A stretch of DNA of 54,169 bases. Origin: a virus (Duplodnaviria; Caudoviricetes). Location: the IMG/VR virus record IMGVR_UViG_3300048839_000345, positions 1 through 54,169 of that record; one strand, given 5' to 3'. This document shows, piece by piece, positions 8,239 through 20,610 of this stretch. The position numbers were made by a program, and so were the translations under genes. The notes beneath the pieces are model-generated. The model did not search any database. It saw only the letters and a list, made by a program, of their open reading frames with translations, and had not been told where the DNA came from. Numbering within the stretch: the first letter of the stretch is position 1; the number at the start of each line of letters is the position of its first letter.

Positions 8239-11200
8239 ATGGCTGACGGTACCGATCCGGTCTCTCTGGAAGAACAGCGCAGGCAGGCGGCTGACCGTCT
8301 ATTCGCTCAGGAAATGGCCGACGAAGACCAGCGCAAGGCATTCCGTCAGCAGTCCTGGGACATGACGCAGCCGCCGCCGGATCAGGCGGGTGAGGCGTTG
8401 CAACTTGGAAACAAGTTCGGCGTGCCGCGCAAGGCGGTGGAAGCCGACCCCGATTATTGGAAGCGCCGCGATCAGGAGGCGCGCCGGAAGCTGCTCATGG
8501 AAGCCAGCCCGCGCACGATGGCGTGGCTCGATGACGAAGACAATTACGCTGTTGCCAAGGATGACGTGGACATCCTGAGCCAGATCGAATCGACGTTCTC
8601 GAAGATCGGCTATGCAGCGAAGGGCGGTTTCCAGCGGTTCGCGGCTGTTGGCGTTGCTGGTGAGCGCCAGGCGATGGGCGAGACGATGGAGTTCTATCGC
8701 CAGCGCGATGAATGGGAGGCCCGTCAGGAGCGCCGCAAGAAGCTGGGACAGGATGCTCCGCGTGGCTGGCGCACCGTTCGGGTGCCTGATGTTGGCACGA
8801 TCTCCGGGTTCGACGTTCCTATCTCCTACGGCAATCTCGACACCGCACCTGTTGCGTCCGGCATTGTCCGCGAGGAAGTGCGCAAGGCGCTGCCAGAGAG
8901 CATGCGGCCCATGTTCGCGTCACAGGTCGGGATTGATGACGCCAAGGCCGTGCGCGGCGTGCTGGAGCGCCGCATGGCCACAGTCGATGCGCGCGCCCGG
9001 GCGAAGGTTGAGGAGTTCACCGAGACGCTGGAGAAGGCGCAGACCGGCAATTATGTCGCTGATGGCCTGCTGTCGGGTGTCACGTCTCTGACCGAGATGG
9101 CACCGTCGATGGCGGCCTTCTTCGCTCTGCGCGGGCGGGGCGGGGCGACGGTCGCGTCTGGCGCGATGGGCGTACAGGTTGCTGGCGCCGAGTATCTTGA
9201 GGGCATCTACAACCTGAACCTGAGCGAGCGTGACGCCAGTGATCGGGCCTTGCTGCAGGCCGGCGTGGAGATCGTCACGGAGCGGATCAGCCTTGGTTAT
9301 CTCGATGAATTGCTGAAGTCTGATCGTGGCTTCGTCAGCAAGCTGGCCCTCAGCATGGGGCAGGAACAAATCCAGGAACAGTTTGCGACGCTGGGCAACC
9401 GCCTTGTCGATATTCCGTATGTCGATCAGGACATGACTATCGGGCGCTTCGTCGAGGAGACCCCTTATTACGCAGGCCAGACGGCGCTGGCCACGCTTGT
9501 CGCCTCTGGCATCACCAACACCACCCTCATCGGCCTCGACACCGCCGTGCGCGACATGGTCGAGCGCTCGCTCCTGTCCCAGCCCTCGGCAGGGGACGCT
9601 GCGATCGACGCTGTCCTGAAGAAGGCGAAGGAAAGCCGCCTCGGCAAGCGCAGCCCTGAGAAGCTGAAGGATGTGCTGGACCGCCAGGCTGCGGGCACGG
9701 GCGTCGAGACGGTCACTGTGGACCTGGACGAACTGGCTCAGACGCTGAAGGCAAAAGGCGTCGAGCTATCCGATGCGCTTGATGGTCTCGGTGTGCCGCG
9801 TGATGAGCTGCAGCAGAAATGGGAGAACTTCGGCGAGATCGAGGTCAAGTTGTCCGACCTTGCCACGAGCGACCTGATGCGTCTGCACGGCGCCGAGACG
9901 CAGGCCAATACGCGCCGCAATGACGATCCGTATACGCCAGCCCGCAAAGAGAAGATGCGGGCCGCTCTTGATCCGGAGATGCGCGAGACTGCAAAGCGTA
10001 TTTATGACGACCTGCAGAACGGCGCTGACATGGCCGAGAAGGAGCAGCAGGTTGCGGACCGTGTTCGCCAACGCATCCGCGGCGCAGGCATCCTCGCCGA
10101 GCGCGAGCAGGAGAATGCCAGCGTGGCGATCCAGACCGCGATGGTCACGACCCTGGCGCGCCGCGTTGGCGCCGATCCGCTGGAGTTCTTCGACCAGCAC
10201 TACCCGCGCATTCAGGGCAGCATTGACGGGATGGTGGCTGAGGAGGGGGCGCTGGAATCATCAGCCAGTCCGTCGAACAAAGAAGCCCGTCTCGCGTTTT
10301 TTGAGGCTATGCCGGAGGTTCTTGAAAGCGCGCGCAGGCATTCCGAGAAGATTCGTGGGAATGCCGATTCTGTAGACGCCGACCTATCCAATCCAGGGTT
10401 TCTTGAGCGTCAGTATCTGGAAGACCTGAACCGCAAAAAAAACGAGCTAAACGAAAAGGCTCAGGATGCCAATCAGGCTGGTGATGCGGTTGCCTATGAG
10501 GCGTTCGCGGATCAAGCTGATGAGGTCCGCCAGCAAATTAAGGCAGAGGAAGCGCGTCAGAAGCAGGCTGTTAAGCGTGCGATGGAGGAGGGGGCGCTGG
10601 AGTCCGGCGCTACATCAATCGTCGCAAGAGGTGAGTACAGCCGAGGACTTGGCGCGTTCTCGGTAGAGATCGTACCGGAACAACGGGCAGATGGCTCATA
10701 TGTTTTAACGCGCAAAATTACTGACGAAAGCGGAGAGAGGCAGGAATACTTTAGCAAAGACGGTTCGTGGCAAAGCGGCCGCCCATCAACTGTGGTGTTT
10801 GGTGCTAACATTGGGCAAATCACCGAAGGGCCTGAAGTTTTCCCTGATATCTCAAGCGCTCTGCAAATGGGCCGTGATGCTGGATTGCCAGAGGGCGCCT
10901 CTATTGTCTCGGGCAACGTGGCGGCAGGCGACCTGCTCGCTCAAGAAATCACCATGCCCGACCTTGACAACAAGGACGAGGTGGAGGCGGCGCTGAACGA
11001 TCCGGAGACGGATGTGCTGCCGCTGACCGAGGGTATGCAAATCCTGGAGCTTGACGAGTTCATTGCGTTCCACGGCACGACCGCGAAGTTCGACCAGTTC
11101 AAGAGCGACAAGATCGGCGCGGGCGAAGGGGCGCAGGCGTTCGGCCCGGGGCACTATTTCACTCAGAGCGCTGGCGTGGCGAACTGGTATCGCAAGCGGA

Positions 11201-14200
11201 TGAAGAAGCTGTCGCCCGGTATCAAGCTGGGCAAGGAGTCGTTCAACAAGGCGAACCCTGCGCACTTTGCGTTGGCTGAGTATTGGAAGTACCGGGACAA
11301 GTTTCTGCACCACGACTTGTTCGGCGGGTATAGGTCTCTGGCTTCAGACATGACGCACTCCGGCGCGCTGGAGCGGGCAATCTTTTCGCTTCAGTATGAG
11401 ATCGACCAGATTGAGTCACCCTTCTTGTATCCGGGCCGCGCTGCTTCCGAATATGCGGCTGCGGATCGTCCAGTCATCCGCGACAGAAAGGAGCTTGCTG
11501 CGTTCCTGAAGCAAGGGCTGTCCTACCTCAAGACACTGGACCCTAAATCTTCCAAAGGCATCCCAAAGCCGCGCAAGCCCACCATTCGCGGTGGCGGCAA
11601 CATTTACACCGTTGCGGTCAAGCTGCCCGCCGAGGCAACGATCCAATATGACAAACCGTTTGGCCAGCAGCCCGCCGCTGTGCAGAAGGCGTTCCGCGAG
11701 GCTGCAGAAGCCGGGACGCTCGGTGAGGTGGCCGACCTGATTGCGAAGTATGGCGCGGCGACCCGAATGGGGCCGCTGGTTGCTGCGCTCAAGAAAAGCG
11801 ACACGCCCGCCATGGAGATCATGCGCAGAAACGGCGTGCGCGGCGTGCGGTATCTCGACGGCATGTCGCGCGGCAAGCGGAACCCGGCGAACCAGACGTT
11901 CAACTATGTCGTGTTCAATGACGGCGACGTCAAGGTTCTCGATCGCAAGGGCCTGCTGTTCCAGGAGTTGGACCAACAGCGCCGAGGCCAGTTCTCACCG
12001 AGCCGCAATATCATCACCATGTTCGAGGCGGCCGATGTCACGACCCTGATGCACGAGGGCGCGCACTGGTATCTGGCTGAGATCGAGCGGATGGCAATGG
12101 CGGAGAACGCGCACCCGTTCGTGACCGAGCAGTGGGAGGCAGTGAAGAAGTGGGGCAAGGTCGGCCCTGACTTCCGGATGTACGACGATATGGGCCGCGT
12201 CACGCCAGAGGGCCGCGAGCTTCAGGAAGCCTTCGCCGAGACGTTCGAGGTCTACCTCCAGACCGGCAAGGCGCCGGTGCCGTCGCTGCGCGAGGCGTTC
12301 CGCGCGTTCAAGCAGTGGATCACGGCGCTGTGGCGCGACATCCGTACCGGGAAGATCAGGCTGCCGGAGCGGGCGAACCTGTCGCCCGAGATCACGCGCG
12401 TCATGGACCGCATGCTGGCCGTAGACGAAGAGATCGAGAGCCAGACCGCTGAGGTGGTCACCAAGGCCGAGGCAATGGCGAACGACCTCTATGACCGGGG
12501 CATCATCACCAAGCGCCAGCGCGATGCGGCGATCATGAACCTGGAGCAGGCCCGCGAGGCTGCCAAGGAAGATCTGATGGCGCAGATCATGCAGGCCGAG
12601 ATGCGCGTGCGTGAGGCCCAGCTGAGCGCCGAGCAGCGCCGCATCAAGGGCGACGTGACGCGGGAGTATGACCGCTCCGCTGTCGGCCGCGCGGTGTCGT
12701 GGCTGGGGTATGGTACGTGGAAGGGGGATGTGCCTGTTTCGGAGACGGAGGGGCTGGATAGCGAGGTGGAGTTTTATCAATCCATCCGCACCGCCACCCG
12801 CATGCCGATGGAAGACATCTACGCCTGGGTCGTCAATAACGTCGATAGCAAGATCCAACAGTTCTCCAGCGGCGACGAAGGCACGATGATGTCGTGGCGC
12901 CTGAGCGATGCGCCGGACGCGCCGCGCGTGCTGCTGTCCATTCGCCTGAGCCGCAAGGGCCGGGCCGATGTGAACCTGTTCCTCAACAACAAGATGGCCG
13001 ACGCGCTCGACGAGATTAGCGACCCGGTCGAGCGCTCCCGCATCGCGACTGAAATGTTCAGCCAGGCCATCATGGTGATGCGCCAGTATTCGGCCGAGAC
13101 GCCGGACCTGAAGGCGTTCAACTTCATTGCGGCCGAGAACGAGAAGGCGGGCCGCAAGGCCAAGAGCCGCGAGGAACTGTACCGGTTCATGCTTTCAACT
13201 ATGCGCATGGACGGGTATACTGCATATGAGATCGGCAGCCAGACCAGCGTGGTGCGGCAGGCTGACGGCGTGAAATCTGCAGACCCGCTATTTGACGGCG
13301 CCGGGTTTGTGATGATCCGGGATGGAGTGGATGTCGATGAGTTCGCCAGAAATGAGATACTTCGCGGCTCTCAGAGCGGGGGAGACGCCGGAGAAGTCGT
13401 CACGGCCCTCACCGCCGTCCGCCTCTCTCGTCCCGCCCGTGGAGGAATGGACCGAGGACGACTGGAAGCTGGCCGAGCTGATCCTGGCGGCGCTGTAGAC
13501 GATACGCTGGGGCAGTCGCCCTTAACGCCAGAGAATTACAAGCCAGTTGAAGAAATTGCGTCTGTAGACGACTCCTTCGCTTTTGCTCGCAGCCAGCCGT
13601 TTGCGACTAACAGAGAACTGAAGGTGGAGATGCAGCGCCGCGTCGAAAGTGCGGCTGAAGACAACAACGCCGATCTTTCCGACGAAGATTATCTTGTTCG
13701 CATGACAGAGCGCGACGCGCGTTCTGCGCTGATCGGCAATGCCAATGCCGTCGGCTGGTACGATGAGAAGGTGCGCAAGTCGATCACTGCACTAACCTTG
13801 CTCCACCCCGAACTCGAGACGGACGCCGAGGCGCGGTTCGCGTTTACGTGGGCGCTGGCTGTTACGTCAAACGGCTTGAAGGTCGATAAGAACTTCGAGC
13901 TGGCGGAGACGGTTTATTCAGCATGGAAAGCTTCCTCTGCTGATGGCGCCTCGCGCCGCATGCCGACCAATGTGGGGATTGGACAAGCTGCTGGCGCGAT
14001 CAACAAGTCGCTTGGCCTTTATAACACGCTTGTTGAAAAACACGGCGTGCAGGTCGTTCTTGAGTTTATGACAGCCCGTCAGACGGTGAAGCAGGTTCAG
14101 GATTTCACAGGCGAGAACGTCTCAGGCGAGAACCTGACGACAGAGGTCTTTGGCGCTGCGGCGCTTGGCCCCAAGATTGGCAACGGGTTCTTTATGAACC

Positions 14201-17200
14201 TCTATGGCGAGTTCGGGCAGCTGACCATGGACCGCTGGCTGATGAGAACCTGGGGCCGGTGGAACGCCACCCTGATCACGGACTATAGCAGGCAGGCGCG
14301 CGAAAGCCGGAAGAAGCTGGGAGCCCTCCTGAAGCTTCTCTCCAACGAAGACAAGCGTGCCCTCGAAAAGATCATCCGCCGACCGATCAAGCTGCGCGAA
14401 ATCGACGAGGTCGGTCTTGCCATTCAGAGGGCGAGCCAGAAGCCTGCTTTGCGCGAAAAGATGAACGAACTGGGCTGGTTTGGTAACGACGAACCATCAG
14501 AGATAACTGATATTCTTGGTCCTTTCCCCAAGGGCAAGCCCCGCAAATCAGTCGGCGCCGAGGTCCGCAAGCGCGGGAACGCGCTCGCCAAGTATCTCGA
14601 CGGCCAAAAAGAGCAGCCGTCTGGCCCACCCGAACGCGCCAAGATCCGCGCTGTTTTTGCGCGTGCGCTTGATAACCTGAAAAACGATTTCCCTACCCTG
14701 ACAATGGCTGACTTGCAGGCGCTGCTGTGGTATCCTGAGAAACGCCTCTATGACACAGCCAAGGCCAAAGAGGGCGAGGAGACCGAAGGTTATGAAGACG
14801 ACGAAGCCCCCGACTACGCCAACGCAGCGCGCAACCTCGTCGTCTCCAAAGGCGTCTCCGAAGCCAGCGTCCGAGACGCCTATGCCCGAATCGATGCCGA
14901 CGTACAGGCCGCTCGACGAGCAGGACGAGTGGAACGAGGAGGCCAGGGACGAAGCGGAGATGGCAGCCTTGGAACTCAAGATGGCGCGCTCCAAGACGAC
15001 ACCCTAGGCCAAGAAGCCGCCCCCACCTTTTACTCCGCCCTCGGGCGTTTCATCGCATCCTCCAACACCGCCCGCGCGCCTGCTGCGCAGTGGAAAGGCA
15101 TGATCTCCAACGCGCCCGGCGTGAAGGCCGAGGAGGTCGAGTGGACCGGCGTGATGGACTGGCTCGACGCGAGCGAGGGGCCGGTGACACGCGAGGCTTT
15201 GGCTGCGTTCGTTGAGGCGAATGGGGTGCGGGTGGAGGAGGTGAGCAAGGGCGGGGCTGGTGCCGCGCCGGCGTTCCAGATTGATGGCGAGTTTAACGTT
15301 CCTGCTATTCGTGACGCCATTGGTCGTGCGCTCCGCGATGGCGCAACGGATTACGGCGATCTTCAAATGAACCTTGAAAACGATGGCGACTTTTACCGCT
15401 ACATGGAGCGCTCTTATCCTGAGTATTTTGAGGAAGATGAAGCAGATTCCGGACGCCTTGCCGAGCGCGTGCTTGAGGACGCCGAAGTCAACTTTGGCGC
15501 GGCCACTAAATTTGAATCTTATGTTCTGCCTGGCGGGACAGGGTATACTGAACTGCTGCTGACAATACCAAAAGTGCGCGGTCCAGAGACGCACTGGGAT
15601 GAAGATAGCGTTGTTGCGCATACTCGCTTCAAGGAGCGCACTGGCCCGAACGGCGAGCGTGTTCTGGCGCTGGAGGAGATCCAATCGGATTGGCACCAAC
15701 AGGGGCGTGAGGATGGCTATGAGCAGACTGTTGATCCCCAAGTGGCGGAGGACGCAAGAGCGGCATTTGAAAAGGCGCGCATTGAACGCAATGCAGCTGA
15801 TAAAGCCATACTCGACTTCATTGCCGAAATGGAAAAGCCAGACTTGCGGACCCTCTTCGAGGCGATCTACTGGGGATCCAGCCGAGACAGCGCATTTTTC
15901 GATGATCTGGTTGAGTCCGTATACGCCACAGCAGATTTCAGAAACCTGACCGAACAGCAACAGCAATTGATTCGCCGACGCGGACTGCAAGAATTGCGCA
16001 TGAATTACACTGGCTTCTCGAAAGAAGCCCGCGCTCAGATTTCTGAGCTTGGCGCAAATTTTGATGCAGCGCAGTTGCGTTTCACGGAAGCCGACACTGC
16101 CTATATGAATGCGGCCTATCCGGGAGGCGTCCCCAACGCCCCCTTCAAAAACAACGCATGGGCCAACCTCGTCCTTAAGCGGATGATCCGGTACGCAGCG
16201 GAGAACGGCTTCGACGCGGTGGCGTGGATACCGGGCAATGTGCAGAATGGCCAGATCGTCGAGGACACAGGCGACAATCGCGGCGACTTCTACGACAAGA
16301 TCGTGCCGAACCTGGCGAGCAAGCTGGGGAAGAAGTATGGGGCAAAGGTGGGGCGGATGCCGCTCGACGCTGCCACACGGGACGAAGGCAATCGCCGCCT
16401 TGGCTATGAAGTCGTTGACGAAAACGGCGACCAGTACGATTCCTTCGATACCATTCAGGCTGCGCAGCAAGCCGCTGAGGATGCTGGCCCCGGCTATGCT
16501 GTGCGCGGTCTGGGCGCGCCGCCGGTCATGTTCCACTCCCTCCCCATCACCCCCGAACTCGCCGCCGCCGCGATGACCGAAGGCTTCCCATTGTTCCAGC
16601 GCGGCGACCCCAAAGGCTGGGGCGAAACAGCCCCGCCGCCAGACCTGCCGCCCATGCGCCTCGACCTTGAGGCAGTGCGCGAACTCTATGGTGAGGACGC
16701 TGTCCGCCGCCTGCCCAAGCCGATCCGCGACCGCTCCCGCGACAAGACCAGCATCGACGGCATGATGGACATCATCCGCGCGAACGTGAAGACGTTGAAG
16801 CGCAAGCCGCCCATGACGCTGTTCCAGTACATCCGGTCCCGCAAGGCGCGTACCGTGGCGGGCCAGACCGTGCCGATCAAGAAGTGGGGCATCAAGGGCG
16901 CGGCTGACGAACTAAAAGCCATGAACCGCGAAGACCTGATCAACGAAACGAACGGCATTCATATCGACTATGTCCGCGAGTCGGCGGCCGAGGCGGGCTA
17001 CCTGCCAGAGGACGCCACGCTCAACGACTTCCTGAACGCCATCGATCGTGAGGCGCGGGGCGAGCCGGTCTACAGCCGGTTTGACCAGAAGGAAGTCGAG
17101 GACCAGCGCTTCGCCAAGGAGTGGGCTGACTGGCTGGACAGTCAGGGCGTGGACATGTTCGAGGCGAACCAGAAGAAGCTGAAGGCTGAAATCGCCAAGA

Positions 17201-20154
17201 TCGTCACCTCGACGGCGGCCGACGCGCGCACGCCAGACGAAATTGCAGCCAAGCTGGGCTTCGCAGACGGGGAGACCATGCTCAACATGCTGGCGCTCAT
17301 GGGCAACCGCGACCAGTGGGTCAAAGAGGAAACCGACCGGCGCATGCGGGAGGAGTTCGGCGACCCGATGGCGGACGGCACGTTCGAGGAAGAGGCCCGC
17401 GTCATCGCCGAGGCTGAGGTGATGTCCCGCGCCGCCGAGATCGAGATGGAAGCACTGGCCCGCGCTGTGGGGGAGCCTGCCGCCTCGAAGCTCGCCAAAG
17501 AAATGGCGATGGACTCGCTGGGTCTGATGACGGTCAAGGAACTGGAGGGCTGGGAGCGGTTTCTGAACGCCGAGCGCCGCGAGATGAACAACACGCTGGA
17601 GGCCGTCAAGCGCGGCGACATGGTGCAGGCGTTCATTCACAAGCGGCGGCAGCTGGTGAACATGCACCTCGCCCGGGCCGCGCGCGAAAAGTCGATTGCG
17701 ATTGAGAAAACCCGCAAGGACCTGCTGACCTACTATTCGTCCAAGGGCCGCCGGGACAAGATCGCGCCGGACTATCTGGAAAAGATCGAGGCCCTTCTGG
17801 AGGGGTATGAGCTGCGCGCCTCGAAGCAGGGGCCGGGCGAGCAGAAGCGGCGGATGTCGGCGAAGGAGTATGTGGACCAGATGATCGCCGATGGCCGCGA
17901 GGCTGAAATTGCGCCGGAAGCGATGATGCTGGCGGAGATGGCAGGCAACAAAGTCTGGCGCGGCCTGACGGCGGATGAGGTCGATTACCTTGCCGGGACG
18001 GTGAAGAACCTGGCCCACCTTGGCCGCACCAAAGGGCGGCTGATGCGAGAGCAGGAGAAGCGCCGGTTTGACGCTGTGGTGGCGGAATTGGTGGATACGC
18101 TGATGGCGGCGCCAAGTTCGCGCCCGCGCGGCAAGTCGTTCTCTCCGGGCGCGGTGGAGGAAGTCACGACCCGCGCGAGCCAGTTTGATGCCAAGCTCAC
18201 AAAGATCCAGGACGAGCTTGAACTTCTGGACGGGCGCGAAGCAGGGCCGCTGCAAACTACGCTGCTGCTTCCCATGGAGCAGGCGGATGTCCGTAAGGGC
18301 ACAATGATGCGGGGCGCCATCAAGGAAATTCGCCGCCTCTGGAATGATGTGCCGGCCCAACTTCGTCGCCAGACCTTGAGCCGCCGGGTGGCAACGCCTG
18401 AGCTTAAACTTCCGACCAATGAGAACATGACCTTGATGGACGTGGTCATCATCGGTCTCAACTGGGGCAACGCTGGCAATCGCCAGGCCCTCATTGATGG
18501 ATACGGCTGGGACCCTGCCTCTGTTGAGGCCGTTCTGGATCGCTATCTGACAAACGAGCACTGGCAATTCATCGAGGGTGTCTGGAGCCTGATCGGCTCC
18601 TACAAGGCCGACGCTTTTGCTCTTGAAAAACGCATCACCGGTGTCGAACCAAAAGCCGTGGAAGGCATCACCTTCACGCTACCGTCTGGCCGCGTGGTGA
18701 AGGGGCAGTACTACCCGCTCAAGTACGATGCCGATCAGGAAAGCGCACTCTCGGTCAAACAGCAAAAGCTGGACGAGAAGCAGATGCTGTCCGAGATGGG
18801 GCTTTCGTTCTCGAAGCCCATGACAAAGACGGGTCACCTGATCTCGCGCGTCGGCTCCGGCGGCAAGCCGGTGAAGGTGTCGATTGATGTCTTCTATGAG
18901 CATGTCGAGAATGTCGTGCATGACATCGCGTTCCGCCCAGCGGTGATTGATGCGTTCAAGATTATCCGTGATCCGCGCTTTACTCAGGCGTACATCGACG
19001 CGGCCGGTAAGGCTCAGTATGACCGGCTGCTGCCATGGCTGCACTCCATTGCCACCAACAACCGGGCGCGGTTCTCCTCGACCTTCGCCAGGACGATGAC
19101 GTTCTTCCGGGGCAGCTGGTCCATCGCGATTATGGGCTACTCCTTCAGCACGGCGACCCAGCAGCTGACCGGCTATCTGGAGGCGGGGACCGAGATCGGG
19201 GGGCGGTGGGTTATGCAAGGCGCGCTCAAGTCCCTGTCGATGGGGCCTGCCTCGTTCTGGCGTGAATGGGCGTTCATCCGCGACCGAAGCGAGTACCTGT
19301 CCAACCGCGTGGCGTTCGGCAAGGAGCGTGACATTCGAGCCGTCCGCACCCGAGCAACGATTGGCGGGCCGCTGACACCCATCGGTGACAACGCGTTCGT
19401 GTTCCTCAGCGTGATGGATGCGATTGTCGGCACCGCTGTCTGGCGCGGCGCTTATGACAAAGCGATGGCTGGCAAGGTCAAGGGCATTACCAACGGCGAG
19501 GAAGACGCTGCGATTGCTTACGCTGACCGGGCGGTCCAGCGGTCCCTGTCGTCTGGCGAAACGTATGCCCTGCCTGAAATCATGCGTGAGGGCGAGATCA
19601 GCGCGTTGATGACCATGGTCTATTCCTATGGCTCGAAAACCTACAACCGCCAGCGTGTCCGCAACATGAAACTGCGGCAGGGCCGCATTGGTGTGGCAGA
19701 GTTCACGATCAACACGCTGATTGCTTTCACGGCTGTGCCGATCCTGGCCGCTCTGCTGGCTGGCAGGTTGTGGCCGGATGACGAGGAAGAATGGGAAGAG
19801 CGCGGCGATGATGTCGGCAACGAAATCCTGATGAACGCGGCCGGCACTACGCCTTTTGTGCGGGACATGATTACGCTGCTCGCCAAGCCTCAGTATGGCT
19901 ACCAGCTGTCCCCGGTCCAGAGCACGTTTGAGCAGATCGGCGTGGCGACCCGCTCGGCCGCCGAAGGCAAGACCTTCGACAACGAATACCAAGTCAAGCA
20001 GGCGGTCATGGCCATCAGCACGATATTCCGCCTGCCGGGCGGCCAGCTGTTTGAAACCGGTGACTACGTGTACGACCTTTACATGGGCGATGAGGACCCA
20101 TTGGAAGACCCCGCAGACGCGGCACGGGAGGCGTTCATTCGGAGCGAACGGTAG
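8239..20154 (+). CDS. Giant polyvalent internal virion/ejection protein (gp16/DarB-like) with ART-like, HEXXH metallopeptidase-like, HhH-glycosylase-like and EEIQSD domains
   Basis: 3971 aa, third ejection-protein position; FHGT...GEGAQAFGPGHYF (~11060-11945), HEGAH (12052-12066), GPKIG...MDRW...QALLW (~13600-14840), EEIQSDWHQ (15673-15699). Confidence 0.85.
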   Translation: MADGTDPVSLEEQRRQAADRLFAQEMADEDQRKAFRQQSWDMTQPPPDQAGEALQLGNKFGVPRKAVEADPDYWKRRDQEARRKLLMEASPRTMAWLDDEDNYAVAKDDVDILSQIESTFSKIGYAAKGGFQRFAAVGVAGERQAMGETMEFYRQRDEWEARQERRKKLGQDAPRGWRTVRVPDVGTISGFDVPISYGNLDTAPVASGIVREEVRKALPESMRPMFASQVGIDDAKAVRGVLERRMATVDARARAKVEEFTETLEKAQTGNYVADGLLSGVTSLTEMAPSMAAFFALRGRGGATVASGAMGVQVAGAEYLEGIYNLNLSERDASDRALLQAGVEIVTERISLGYLDELLKSDRGFVSKLALSMGQEQIQEQFATLGNRLVDIPYVDQDMTIGRFVEETPYYAGQTALATLVASGITNTTLIGLDTAVRDMVERSLLSQPSAGDAAIDAVLKKAKESRLGKRSPEKLKDVLDRQAAGTGVETVTVDLDELAQTLKAKGVELSDALDGLGVPRDELQQKWENFGEIEVKLSDLATSDLMRLHGAETQANTRRNDDPYTPARKEKMRAALDPEMRETAKRIYDDLQNGADMAEKEQQVADRVRQRIRGAGILAEREQENASVAIQTAMVTTLARRVGADPLEFFDQHYPRIQGSIDGMVAEEGALESSASPSNKEARLAFFEAMPEVLESARRHSEKIRGNADSVDADLSNPGFLERQYLEDLNRKKNELNEKAQDANQAGDAVAYEAFADQADEVRQQIKAEEARQKQAVKRAMEEGALESGATSIVARGEYSRGLGAFSVEIVPEQRADGSYVLTRKITDESGERQEYFSKDGSWQSGRPSTVVFGANIGQITEGPEVFPDISSALQMGRDAGLPEGASIVSGNVAAGDLLAQEITMPDLDNKDEVEAALNDPETDVLPLTEGMQILELDEFIAFHGTTAKFDQFKSDKIGAGEGAQAFGPGHYFTQSAGVANWYRKRMKKLSPGIKLGKESFNKANPAHFALAEYWKYRDKFLHHDLFGGYRSLASDMTHSGALERAIFSLQYEIDQIESPFLYPGRAASEYAAADRPVIRDRKELAAFLKQGLSYLKTLDPKSSKGIPKPRKPTIRGGGNIYTVAVKLPAEATIQYDKPFGQQPAAVQKAFREAAEAGTLGEVADLIAKYGAATRMGPLVAALKKSDTPAMEIMRRNGVRGVRYLDGMSRGKRNPANQTFNYVVFNDGDVKVLDRKGLLFQELDQQRRGQFSPSRNIITMFEAADVTTLMHEGAHWYLAEIERMAMAENAHPFVTEQWEAVKKWGKVGPDFRMYDDMGRVTPEGRELQEAFAETFEVYLQTGKAPVPSLREAFRAFKQWITALWRDIRTGKIRLPERANLSPEITRVMDRMLAVDEEIESQTAEVVTKAEAMANDLYDRGIITKRQRDAAIMNLEQAREAAKEDLMAQIMQAEMRVREAQLSAEQRRIKGDVTREYDRSAVGRAVSWLGYGTWKGDVPVSETEGLDSEVEFYQSIRTATRMPMEDIYAWVVNNVDSKIQQFSSGDEGTMMSWRLSDAPDAPRVLLSIRLSRKGRADVNLFLNNKMADALDEISDPVERSRIATEMFSQAIMVMRQYSAETPDLKAFNFIAAENEKAGRKAKSREELYRFMLSTMRMDGYTAYEIGSQTSVVRQADGVKSADPLFDGAGFVMIRDGVDVDEFARNEILRGSQSGGDAGEVVTALTAVRLSRPARGGMDRGRLEAGRADPGGAVDDTLGQSPLTPENYKPVEEIASVDDSFAFARSQPFATNRELKVEMQRRVESAAEDNNADLSDEDYLVRMTERDARSALIGNANAVGWYDEKVRKSITALTLLHPELETDAEARFAFTWALAVTSNGLKVDKNFELAETVYSAWKASSADGASRRMPTNVGIGQAAGAINKSLGLYNTLVEKHGVQVVLEFMTARQTVKQVQDFTGENVSGENLTTEVFGAAALGPKIGNGFFMNLYGEFGQLTMDRWLMRTWGRWNATLITDYSRQARESRKKLGALLKLLSNEDKRALEKIIRRPIKLREIDEVGLAIQRASQKPALREKMNELGWFGNDEPSEITDILGPFPKGKPRKSVGAEVRKRGNALAKYLDGQKEQPSGPPERAKIRAVFARALDNLKNDFPTLTMADLQALLWYPEKRLYDTAKAKEGEETEGYEDDEAPDYANAARNLVVSKGVSEASVRDAYARIDADVQAARRAGRVERGGQGRSGDGSLGTQDGALQDDTLGQEAAPTFYSALGRFIASSNTARAPAAQWKGMISNAPGVKAEEVEWTGVMDWLDASEGPVTREALAAFVEANGVRVEEVSKGGAGAAPAFQIDGEFNVPAIRDAIGRALRDGATDYGDLQMNLENDGDFYRYMERSYPEYFEEDEADSGRLAERVLEDAEVNFGAATKFESYVLPGGTGYTELLLTIPKVRGPETHWDEDSVVAHTRFKERTGPNGERVLALEEIQSDWHQQGREDGYEQTVDPQVAEDARAAFEKARIERNAADKAILDFIAEMEKPDLRTLFEAIYWGSSRDSAFFDDLVESVYATADFRNLTEQQQQLIRRRGLQELRMNYTGFSKEARAQISELGANFDAAQLRFTEADTAYMNAAYPGGVPNAPFKNNAWANLVLKRMIRYAAENGFDAVAWIPGNVQNGQIVEDTGDNRGDFYDKIVPNLASKLGKKYGAKVGRMPLDAATRDEGNRRLGYEVVDENGDQYDSFDTIQAAQQAAEDAGPGYAVRGLGAPPVMFHSLPITPELAAAAMTEGFPLFQRGDPKGWGETAPPPDLPPMRLDLEAVRELYGEDAVRRLPKPIRDRSRDKTSIDGMMDIIRANVKTLKRKPPMTLFQYIRSRKARTVAGQTVPIKKWGIKGAADELKAMNREDLINETNGIHIDYVRESAAEAGYLPEDATLNDFLNAIDREARGEPVYSRFDQKEVEDQRFAKEWADWLDSQGVDMFEANQKKLKAEIAKIVTSTAADARTPDEIAAKLGFADGETMLNMLALMGNRDQWVKEETDRRMREEFGDPMADGTFEEEARVIAEAEVMSRAAEIEMEALARAVGEPAASKLAKEMAMDSLGLMTVKELEGWERFLNAERREMNNTLEAVKRGDMVQAFIHKRRQLVNMHLARAAREKSIAIEKTRKDLLTYYSSKGRRDKIAPDYLEKIEALLEGYELRASKQGPGEQKRRMSAKEYVDQMIADGREAEIAPEAMMLAEMAGNKVWRGLTADEVDYLAGTVKNLAHLGRTKGRLMREQEKRRFDAVVAELVDTLMAAPSSRPRGKSFSPGAVEEVTTRASQFDAKLTKIQDELELLDGREAGPLQTTLLLPMEQADVRKGTMMRGAIKEIRRLWNDVPAQLRRQTLSRRVATPELKLPTNENMTLMDVVIIGLNWGNAGNRQALIDGYGWDPASVEAVLDRYLTNEHWQFIEGVWSLIGSYKADAFALEKRITGVEPKAVEGITFTLPSGRVVKGQYYPLKYDADQESALSVKQQKLDEKQMLSEMGLSFSKPMTKTGHLISRVGSGGKPVKVSIDVFYEHVENVVHDIAFRPAVIDAFKIIRDPRFTQAYIDAAGKAQYDRLLPWLHSIATNNRARFSSTFARTMTFFRGSWSIAIMGYSFSTATQQLTGYLEAGTEIGGRWVMQGALKSLSMGPASFWREWAFIRDRSEYLSNRVAFGKERDIRAVRTRATIGGPLTPIGDNAFVFLSVMDAIVGTAVWRGAYDKAMAGKVKGITNGEEDAAIAYADRAVQRSLSSGETYALPEIMREGEISALMTMVYSYGSKTYNRQRVRNMKLRQGRIGVAEFTINTLIAFTAVPILAALLAGRLWPDDEEEWEERGDDVGNEILMNAAGTTPFVRDMITLLAKPQYGYQLSPVQSTFEQIGVATRSAAEGKTFDNEYQVKQAVMAISTIFRLPGGQLFETGDYVYDLYMGDEDPLEDPADAAREAFIRSER
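13337..13498 (+). CDS. Putative nested acidic microprotein 1 (+1 frame inside giant gene)
   Basis: MSSPEMRYFAALRAGETPEKSSRPSPPSASLVPPVEEWTEDDWKLAELILAAL; GGAG upstream; codon bias switches to this frame; start uncertain (ATGs at 13322, 13331, 13337, 13352). Confidence 0.5.
   Translation: MSSPEMRYFAALRAGETPEKSSRPSPPSASLVPPVEEWTEDDWKLAELILAAL
14882..15007 (+). CDS. Putative nested acidic microprotein 2 (+1 frame inside giant gene)
   Basis: MPESMPTYRPLDEQDEWNEEARDEAEMAALELKMARSKTTP; codon bias switches to this frame; start uncertain (14750, 14882 or 14894). Confidence 0.45.
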   Translation: MPESMPTYRPLDEQDEWNEEARDEAEMAALELKMARSKTTP

Positions 20155-20160
20155 CCATCC

Positions 20161-20190
20161 ACCGTCCACCAACACCCGCCGGTTTATGGT
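20161..20190 (+). promoter_or_regulatory. Putative late promoter motif (probably leaderless transcript)
   Basis: ACCGT-CCA-CCAAC-N11-TATGGT, ATG at 20197. Confidence 0.6.
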
Positions 20191-20196
20191 GGCACC

Positions 20197-20610
20197 ATGC
20201 TGGACAGACGACCGCCACCCCGCTCCGAGTTCGACAGCGACGCCGCGTGGGGTCGTGCCCGAGCCTTGTATTTCAAGAACCTTCCCCAACGGAAAGCGCC
20301 CGAACCGGTCGTGATTGAGCGGGAGGTGATCCGCGAGGTGCCTGTCGAGGTGATCCGCGAGGTCGAAGTGATCCGGGAGGTGCGCGTTGAAGCGTCCCCG
20401 GCTGAGATCGAAATACCGGCGTTTCTGCGCCCCATCCCGGGAGAGGACTTCATTGCCTCCGAACTGCAGCCCGGCGAGTCAATGGACGAGGCCGGCGAGC
20501 GCCTGCGCCTGGAACTGGAAATCCTGCTGAACCGGGAAAAGAATGGCCCCCTGAGCGAGAGTTCGGAGGCGCGCAAACGTGAACTGACGAGTGGACTTGG
20601 AAGGGGCTGA
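20197..20610 (+). CDS. Hypothetical protein with VIREV repeats
   Basis: 137 aa; EREVIREVPVEVIREVEVIREVRVE. Confidence 0.7.
   Translation: MLDRRPPPRSEFDSDAAWGRARALYFKNLPQRKAPEPVVIEREVIREVPVEVIREVEVIREVRVEASPAEIEIPAFLRPIPGEDFIASELQPGESMDEAGERLRLELEILLNREKNGPLSESSEARKRELTSGLGRG

Follow-up and report, generated by a model that had tools for sequence, protein, structure and literature searches.

A conserved small gene probably overprinted in the +1 frame on a linker of a giant polyvalent virion-protein gene of tailed phages

The stretch of DNA considered here, called the window below, is a whole IMG/VR virus record of 54,169 bp (IMGVR_UViG_3300048839_000345; Duplodnaviria, Caudoviricetes) with an estimated completeness of 97%. 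Its plus strand carries a giant gene (8239..20154), a single open reading frame (ORF) of 3971 amino acids (aa), whose product is, judging from its sequence, a polyvalent virion protein as this term is used by Iyer et al. 2017 (PMC5512222). The N-terminus of the protein matches Pfam LPD22 (E 1.6e-19, above the cut-off of that family), its C-terminal third matches phrog_9880, and the gene sits in a structural gene block with tail protein and endolysin genes on its flanks. Within this gene a module resembling HhH-GPD DNA glycosylases, with invariant GPKIG and MDRW motifs (13516..14887, plus strand), is followed by a linker in which a short second ORF is nested in the +1 frame relative to the giant gene. 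This nested ORF (14894..15007, plus strand) is the subject of the present analysis.

Read from the ATG at 14894, the nested ORF specifies an acidic peptide of 37 aa, MPTYRPLDEQDEWNEEARDEAEMAALELKMARSKTTP, with 10 Asp or Glu against 5 Lys or Arg residues, and is closed by a TAG; an alternative ATG lies at 14882, and the open stretch of the +1 frame spans 14750..15007. The TAG (15005-15007) overlaps the CTA-G of the Leu-Gly codons in a main-frame DDTLGQ junction motif on the same strand (14995-15012), the second one of this sequence in the giant gene. Near the N-terminus of the peptide lies the part that is conserved among relatives, L-D-E-Q-D-E-W-N-E-E (14912..14941, plus strand), which contains an invariant Gln (codon 14921-14923).

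The initial annotation had drawn attention to the codon usage at this place, and direct counting gave the same figures. Between 14911 and 14982 the main frame contains CGA five times and GGA five times in 24 codons, 6 of the 24 ending in G or C; re-reading of the +1 frame from 14894 yields 33 G/C-ending codons out of 37 sense codons and a stop inside the second DDTLGQ. Sliding windows of 24 codons were scanned over the whole 11.9-kb ORF for a guanine-plus-cytosine (GC) content of at least 0.88 at first codon positions (GC1) together with at most 0.38 at third positions (GC3). This inverted profile occurs at two places only, 13423-13510 and 14881-14995, the means of the giant ORF being 0.65 for GC1 and 0.74 for GC3. 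Both linkers end in main-frame DDTLGQ, and each contains a +1 ORF for an acidic, Trp-containing peptide. The openness of the +1 frame was rejected as evidence for a gene, since codon resampling with the main protein fixed shows that it is expected by chance, with an open frame in 91% of the trials for the window and a median of 0.54 over the loci. The signal lies in the composition and above all in the homologs. In the reverse calculation, with the nested protein fixed, the chance that the main frame stays open is 0.06 for the window.

Homologs were collected from 92 loci, of which 80 were IMG/VR loci (kept of 130) and 12 came from bacterial genome assemblies; removal of identical stretches left 71 distinct sequences. 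Their identity to the window is 40-56%, and no relative above 56% was present among the IMG/VR loci or found in a metagenome scan. The initial annotation had called for such a survey, in view of the possibility that homologs lack the ORF or carry frequent stops. It was found that the +1 core with its invariant Gln is kept in 70 of the 71 distinct loci, from genomes with a GC content of 0.32 to 0.71, and that the nearest +1 stop lies at least 14 codons past this Gln in the same proportion (70/71), which runs counter to that possibility. The exception, locus L085, is without a linker, and GC3 there is normal (0.91). The main frame after the module consists in the homologs of a poorly conserved Gly/Arg/Ala-rich stretch, in which A-ending codons are retained even at a genome GC content of 65-71%. 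The general form of the core is P-x-S-A-Q-[QED]-[EQ]-[F/H/W/V/Q]-[ND]-x-E, the window having P-L-D-E-Q-D-E-W-N-E-E. The conserved feature of the family, as far as the alignments tell, is thus the x-A-Q-[QE]-E-aromatic/His-[ND] core and not the E-W motif, to which the initial annotation had appealed as a sign of selection; that selection acts on the +1 frame was borne out, the choice of motif was not.

The question which of the two frames is under selection can be approached via the ratio of nonsynonymous to synonymous differences per site (pN/pS), taken as Nei-Gojobori counts summed over all sequence pairs. For the core, defined as the codons from 3 before to 6 after the invariant Gln, the 49 window-like sequences give the +1 frame a pN/pS of 0.34-0.38 (pS 0.80) and the main frame one of 1.9-2.6, whereas in the last 26 codons of the module the same sequences give 0.45 in the main frame and 1.1 in the +1 frame. 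When the alignment was built on the main-frame protein, the linker still showed 1.80 for the main frame versus 0.60 for the +1 frame. Among 330 nine-codon windows inside the module (54 sequences), none had a lower ratio in the +1 frame, w(+1), than in the main frame, w(main), and the five linker windows have the five lowest values of w(+1)/w(main) among all 335. The difference between the frames is large and consistent. At +1 codon positions 1 and 2 the alignment columns carry much information, at position 3 little; seen from the main frame, positions 2 and 3 are conserved and position 1 is variable, a pattern that selection on the main-frame protein cannot produce. These comparisons support purifying selection on the +1 frame in the linker and none on the main frame there, which would only be kept open, with Arg/Gly-rich residues that appear to be dictated by the other frame.

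In other lineages the nested ORF has the make-up of a gene of its own. One of these is a sub-family with a product of about 72 aa, represented by 29 distinct sequences with a GC content of 43-70%, including locus L094, which resembles that of the cultured Limnohabitans phage DC33. The DC33 locus itself, which was read separately, carries the same 72-aa form. All 29 have a start codon (26 ATG, 3 GTG), the place of which is fixed at 3 or 6 codons ahead of the Gln, even though the main-frame residues over the start codon are variable (N, D, S, G, R). Many members have a +1 stop 5-13 codons upstream of the Gln, and sequences like AAGGAAG or GGAGG are found upstream of the starts. The ORFs extend 67-74 codons beyond the Gln to a conserved C-terminus, ...GLTRE.AE.MA..FGF followed by a stop, and over the three codon positions of the +1 frame their GC content is distributed as in an ordinary gene. 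In this frame pN/pS is 0.40-0.45 for the N-terminus and 0.43-0.60 for the C-terminus; in the middle of the ORF the main frame is the more constrained one, which implies that the stretch is truly dual coding. The main frame is open in all 29 loci against a chance with a median of 0.018 per locus, obtained by codon resampling with the nested protein fixed. Since it is open against these odds throughout, both products would be made from the same DNA, and, on this statistical ground, selection holds the main frame open along the nested gene.

A profile of the 72-aa form found 166 database proteins of about 70-76 aa, all unnamed or hypothetical. Out of 30 further viral loci, 16 were examined, and in 15 of these the ORF that encloses the small one has 899 to more than 2000 codons. 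In one natural variant (L110:1012-1503) a deletion has brought the C-terminal part of the module into one frame with the last portion of the nested ORF, up to its ...FGF and stop; the giant gene then resumes in another ORF, which overlaps. Among the database relatives of the 72-aa protein, P0108 (112 aa) and P0031 (105 aa) have longer N-termini, one with transposase-type helix-turn-helix Pfam matches and the other with an extension that is plausibly acidic and helical; these two may be free-standing or chimeric forms. When a 72-aa relative was modelled alone, four loosely packed helices were obtained, with a predicted local distance difference test score (pLDDT) of 67 and a predicted template modelling score (pTM) of 0.27, as would fit a protein that folds on a partner.

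A separate group with a GC content of about 32% (L026 and L029-L040, 0.32-0.36) possesses a nested +1 ORF of 129-133 aa, for example L026:2215-2601. Its ATG is preceded, at a distance of 5 nucleotides, by a perfect AGGAGG, two codons after a +1 stop. Across the group the long tail of its product (…LEVLENLMSTLPPELSQIL…) is conserved, and it extends over the next module. In phage genomes as rich in AT as those of this group, long ORFs in an alternative frame are rare.

Start codons are conserved in most lineages, and the start signals in the clade of the window are less uniform. An ATG or GTG is found within 13 codons upstream of the Gln in 41 of the 49 window-like sequences, or 43 when TTG is counted as well, and the ATG at 14894, 9 codons before the Gln, matches in position those of L002, L013, L081 and L084. 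It seems rather likely, though well short of certain, that the 37-aa ORF is expressed as a free peptide in the window phage.

The other linker with inverted composition lies after a different module of the giant gene and contains the first nested +1 ORF (13322..13498, plus strand), of which the part at about 13424-13498 is conserved (LVPPVEEWTEDDWKLAELILAAL, then a stop). It has a single homolog, L124, with 63% identity. The two +1 peptides are identical at 18 of 24 positions (LVPPVEEWT..D..LA.LILAAL) and stop at the same place, whereas the main frames are unlike at most positions; over the 24 codons the differences at +1 positions 1, 2 and 3 number 5, 4 and 14, and pN/pS is 0.34 in the +1 frame versus 2.26 in the main frame. 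The first linker thus behaves like the second, and the same phenomenon occurs twice in the giant gene. The initial annotation had regarded this recurrence as independent and as support for selection. The shared inverted composition, found at these two places only, upholds the recurrence, which may reflect related linker cassettes instead of independent events. Comparison of nine nested peptides with Pfam and PHROG gave no family at E ≤ 1, apart from an insignificant match of the first nested ORF to an Rz-like spanin in PHROG (E 0.064), and an ESM Atlas search for look-alikes of one 71-aa member returned low-scoring unnamed clusters only.

The module that precedes the 37-aa ORF was labelled glycosylase-like in the initial annotation, and at the level of the fold this label finds support. 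Its AlphaFold2 (AF2) model has a pLDDT of 91.7 and a pTM of 0.86. In a VIA structure comparison with 48,161 representative chains, the top 23 rows all belong to the HhH-GPD DNA-glycosylase superfamily (Z 9.5-5.7, about 165-216 residues aligned): 20 are DNA glycosylases (8-oxoG, EndoIII, MutY, AlkA, MagIII, AGOG and ROS1), two are DUF2419 proteins (queuine-salvage enzyme) and one is gp46 of phage PaMx11. The best row is 3n0u_A, with Z 9.5, a root-mean-square deviation of 4.6 Å and 202 of 209 residues aligned. Invariant in an alignment of 29 module sequences are G218, K220, I221 and G222, and likewise D239, R240 and W241; the G-P-K-I-G hairpin and the Asp of MDRW resemble in their pattern the helix-hairpin-helix and the catalytic Asp of the HhH-GPD family. 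A glycosylase-like fold is likely on the basis of the model.

Co-folding of the peptide with the module, as proposed in the initial annotation, suggests a direct association of the two. In three runs the interface score (ipSAE) was 0.81, 0.80 and 0.80, versus 0.00 for the best of three controls, with a pLDDT of 77-78 for the partner and at least 82% of the contacts common to the runs. Of 80 solved complexes 58 attained the mark used, as against 2 of 110 mismatched pairs, a calibration that is rough given the self-supplied alignments. On the module side the predicted interface comprises residues 119-120, 157-164, 203-204, 218-221 (GPKI), 238-240 (MDR), 301-323 and 341-368, including the conserved DGQKE.P loop (361-368); on the peptide side it comprises residues 3-30, conserved core included. 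In the co-fold the conserved core of the peptide contacts conserved residues of the presumed DNA-binding and active-site cleft, lying on the GPKIG hairpin and the MDRW Asp. The idea of an acidic DNA mimic, put forward in the initial annotation, agrees with the window peptide, which is acidic and is placed in the cleft by the co-fold, but the 72-aa form is not acidic, and mimicry of DNA by charge can therefore not be the mechanism of the whole family.

How these observations may be connected is as follows. The region 14894-15007 would be the window phage's copy of a small gene that is overprinted in the +1 frame on the linker after the module; that the family is a real overprinted gene, with the 37-aa ORF as its local copy, is a conclusion in which we place high confidence. 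We infer that the late mRNA of the giant gene would also serve for translation of the nested ORF, beginning at a start codon of its own, and that the acidic, helical peptide of 37 aa would bind, as so far seen in silico only, to the DNA-binding cleft of the module encoded just upstream. It would then act as a cognate cleft blocker, either an inhibitor or a guard, that keeps the DNA-acting module silent while it is made and packaged beside the phage DNA. Nesting would keep the effector and its partner together during module shuffling, as one cassette. For the role as a cognate cleft-binding blocker of the glycosylase-like module, which is derived from modelling, our confidence falls slightly below the midpoint, and the account as a whole, a conserved overprinted small gene with a product that blocks the cleft of the module, we hold to be evenly balanced between right and wrong.

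A number of points weigh against this interpretation. Concerning the gene, the conservation that extends over the whole family covers only some 10-20 residues; the window-like nested ORFs vary from 23 to 133 aa, with the first 15-20 or so residues conserved and a tail that follows whatever lies downstream of the core. Because no close relative was found, the selection test of the window peptide covers the core only, and the pN/pS counts ignore shared ancestry. Eight of the 49 window-like sequences have neither ATG nor GTG within 13 codons of the core, two of these having TTG. The Shine-Dalgarno signal of the window is weak, as the initial annotation had already judged: nothing resembling such a sequence precedes the ATGs at 14882 and 14894 or occurs in the clade, and a promoter and terminator scan of 14300-15200 gave 0 sites, including no sigma-70-like promoter. 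Concerning the module, the assignment is one by fold only, and the Z of 9.5 is under the VIA safe level for helical proteins; its sequence gave nothing against Pfam at E ≤ 5, a sequence-profile search of the PDB gave no glycosylase or anything else relevant, and Foldseek of the model against the PDB gave nothing at E ≤ 0.001. Concerning the complex, the inputs were self-made and unpaired alignments (29 rows for the module and 22 for the 37-aa window peptide), the controls were unrelated natural proteins instead of scrambled acidic peptides, and an acidic helix may dock unspecifically into any basic DNA cleft. The co-fold score should be regarded as the model's own confidence and not as a measurement, and the lack of acidity of the 72-aa form, mentioned above, belongs to the same side of the balance.

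Of the other explanations, the one that survives best is that the nested gene is real and translated but serves another purpose, for instance as a chaperone in folding or packaging of the giant protein, as an accessory protein that is ejected or as a small regulator, with the predicted docking on the module being incidental. Selection, start codons and conserved length hold equally for such a role, no family or fold match gives a function, and the properties of the 72-aa form agree with it as well, with its lack of acidity, its loose helices when modelled alone (pTM 0.27) and a C-terminal ...GLTRE.AE.MA..FGF that is absent from the window peptide. It is more difficult to explain in this manner why the nested ORF always follows the same module, whatever lies downstream, and why the co-fold sets the conserved core on conserved module residues, and we regard another role as rather unlikely.

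It could also be that there is no separate gene and that a programmed +1 ribosomal frameshift at the end of the module produces a truncated isoform of the giant protein with the acidic helix at its end, a helix that could then bend back onto the cleft in cis. The +1 conservation begins where the main-frame conservation ends, and the variant L110 is a natural in-frame fusion of module and nested-ORF tail, formed by deletion. Low-GC members have an A-run just before the core, and the start signals that are missing in the window and its nearest clade (no Shine-Dalgarno sequence; 8 of 49 without a nearby ATG or GTG) would not be required. Such a mechanism does not account for the ATG or GTG in 29 of 29 members of the 72-aa sub-family in spite of variable main-frame residues over the start, for the +1 stops 5-13 codons upstream of the Gln in many of them, or for the 32%-GC group, in which AGGAGG and an ATG follow a +1 stop at a distance of two codons. 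No slippery motif common to the lineages was found upstream of the core. A search for longer forms gave no database protein with the peptide in frame with the module, which is weak evidence, and none of the stand-alone module proteins in the database carries the nested peptide in frame. Because start codons are conserved elsewhere in the family and a shared slip site is lacking, a frameshift is disfavoured, and we consider it decidedly improbable.

If a separate gene is accepted for the family, the copy in the window may still be a decaying, unexpressed relic. The missing Shine-Dalgarno sequence and promoter would agree with this, as would the core with D-E where the consensus has S-A, a tail that is unrelated to those of other members, and the lack of a close relative. 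On the other hand, the sharp anomaly in composition (33/37 versus 6/24 G/C-ending codons) should wear away if selection were absent, P, L, Q, E, an aromatic residue, N, E and E are retained in the core, the ATG is at the homologous position, and the co-fold result was obtained with the window peptide itself, all of which makes a relic very unlikely. Finally, it is hardly credible that the +1 frame has no function and that its acidic reading follows incidentally from a flexible, Arg/Gly-rich linker or from features of the RNA such as rare codons or purine richness, for, even though NGA codons (Arg, Gly) are read as GAN (Asp, Glu) one base on and openness of the +1 frame is expected by chance (median 0.54, window 0.91), this would leave unexplained the conservation of main-frame positions 2 and 3 with a variable position 1, a main-frame pN/pS above 1 in the core, the conserved start codons, stops and lengths, and the A-ending main-frame codons kept in genomes of 65-71% GC.

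Some further features of the window and the giant gene may be mentioned here. The window also encodes a tail protein, an endolysin, a helicase, a primase, a large terminase and a portal-like head-tail adaptor. Residues 943-986 of the giant protein (11065-11200) show a weak match to ART-PolyVal, an ADP-ribosyltransferase family, at 24.6 bits versus a cut-off of 31.2. Main-frame module junctions end in hydrophobic-x-Gln, with VLEQ, VLYQ, VLNQ, TFQQ and VLRQ in homologs (L001-L084) and TLGQ (twice), LFQ and FYQ in the window, where EEGALES is also present twice; the window sites are 14995-15012, the 13498-15515 region, 10249, 10594, 11956, 12772 and 16591. These junctions may be processing sites or cassette borders of the giant protein. 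The positioning of the +1 stop on the Leu of the hydrophobic-x-Q motif, which recurs in 9 sequences, was rejected as evidence, since a +1 stop tends to arise in any case at the first hydrophobic codon behind a run of Gly and Arg. In many homologs (L008, L013, L017, L081, L082 and L084) the module after the linker begins with ...ADLSTFLHESGHFFLEV and has an HExxH-like motif, suggestive of a zincin-type peptidase domain beside the junction. On the minus strand, opposite the giant gene, there are three antisense ORFs of 510-551 aa (15004-16536, 16912-18567 and 18679-20289); these are of a kind common in GC-rich coding DNA, and nothing points to genes.

The nested gene is neither annotated nor described in the records and literature searched. 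In GenBank PQ492659 and MW202640 only the giant coding sequence is annotated, though both carry the nested ORF. Iyer et al. 2017 (PMC5512222), in the passages of the article text that were covered, do not mention linker, frameshift, overlapping or glycosylase, and the text of the paper on Limnohabitans phage DC33 does not mention overlapping, polyvalent or glycosylase. Literature on polyvalent proteins with overlapping genes, and on embedded or overprinted phage genes, yielded nothing on the nested gene. The taxonomy line of PQ492659.1 places DC33 in the Inoviridae, whereas the paper describes an icosahedral, short-tailed double-stranded DNA phage of 39 kb; the label is probably an error in the record.

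Genes of this type are discarded by standard phage annotation, even though the nested frame occurs in about 100 phage loci and 166 database proteins, from 32% to 71% GC, and the host gene is the largest gene in a widespread group of freshwater and soil short-tailed phages. The findings indicate that a second gene can reside in the inter-domain linkers of giant proteins and there be the main determinant of how the DNA evolves. They also offer a testable idea about the way in which phages keep an injected DNA-acting enzyme harmless during production and packaging, and since the cultured phage DC33 carries the 72-aa form, the question is directly accessible to experiment. If the peptides are indeed blockers, they would be natural inhibitors of an uncharacterised family of HhH-GPD-like enzymes. 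A more general proposal, which we put forward as speculation and consider rather doubtful, is that in polyvalent virion proteins the linker after each DNA-acting module encodes, in its alternative frame, an antidote or guard for that module, so that the two form an indivisible cassette that can be shuffled. If this were true, the two nested ORFs behind two different modules would be two instances of a general design, and Arg/Gly linkers that look like junk in such giant proteins would be what hidden genes yield when read out of frame.

It is useful to compare the nested gene with known systems. In phage lambda, Rz1 lies wholly inside Rz, in the +1 frame and with its own start, and the products of both genes cooperate; Rz1 is a lipoprotein with a signal sequence that acts in lysis. 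The similarity is that of a small nested +1 gene with a product that partners the product of the host gene, which is here a prediction. Unlike Rz1, the nested peptide is without a signal or lipobox, its gene lies in a linker of a virion polyprotein-like gene, and it is predicted to bind an enzyme-like domain. In effector-immunity and toxin-antitoxin pairs an enzyme that may harm its producer and a small cognate binding partner are inherited together; these are adjacent genes, whereas the putative pair described here would occupy two frames of the same DNA. The lambda G/GT and T7 10A/10B proteins are programmed frameshift isoforms of structural genes with a conserved slippery site and no start codon, whereas in the nested family it is the start codon that is conserved.

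Ugi, p56 and SAUGI are described as small DNA-mimic inhibitors of uracil-DNA glycosylase (UDG) (PMC3794593, PMC3239192, PMC3902945). The likeness is that a small acidic protein encoded by a phage is proposed to sit in the DNA-binding site of a DNA glycosylase, but these inhibitors are directed at host family-1 UDG, are encoded by free-standing genes and have folds of their own. The predicted target of the nested peptide is the phage's own HhH-GPD-like module, its gene is overprinted, the nested peptides have no sequence-family match, and the 72-aa relatives are not acidic. The nested gene belongs neither to the Rz1 type nor to the Ugi/p56/SAUGI group. Overprinted genes of small viruses and phages (PMC3494269, PMC8227390) share with the present case a second frame that is under purifying selection over an existing gene, and a product that is short, weakly structured and taxonomically restricted. 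Unlike in those small viruses, the host frame is here an unconstrained inter-domain linker of a giant multidomain gene in tailed phages of 39-54 kb, and because this frame is unconstrained in the linker, the nested frame is locally the dominant one.

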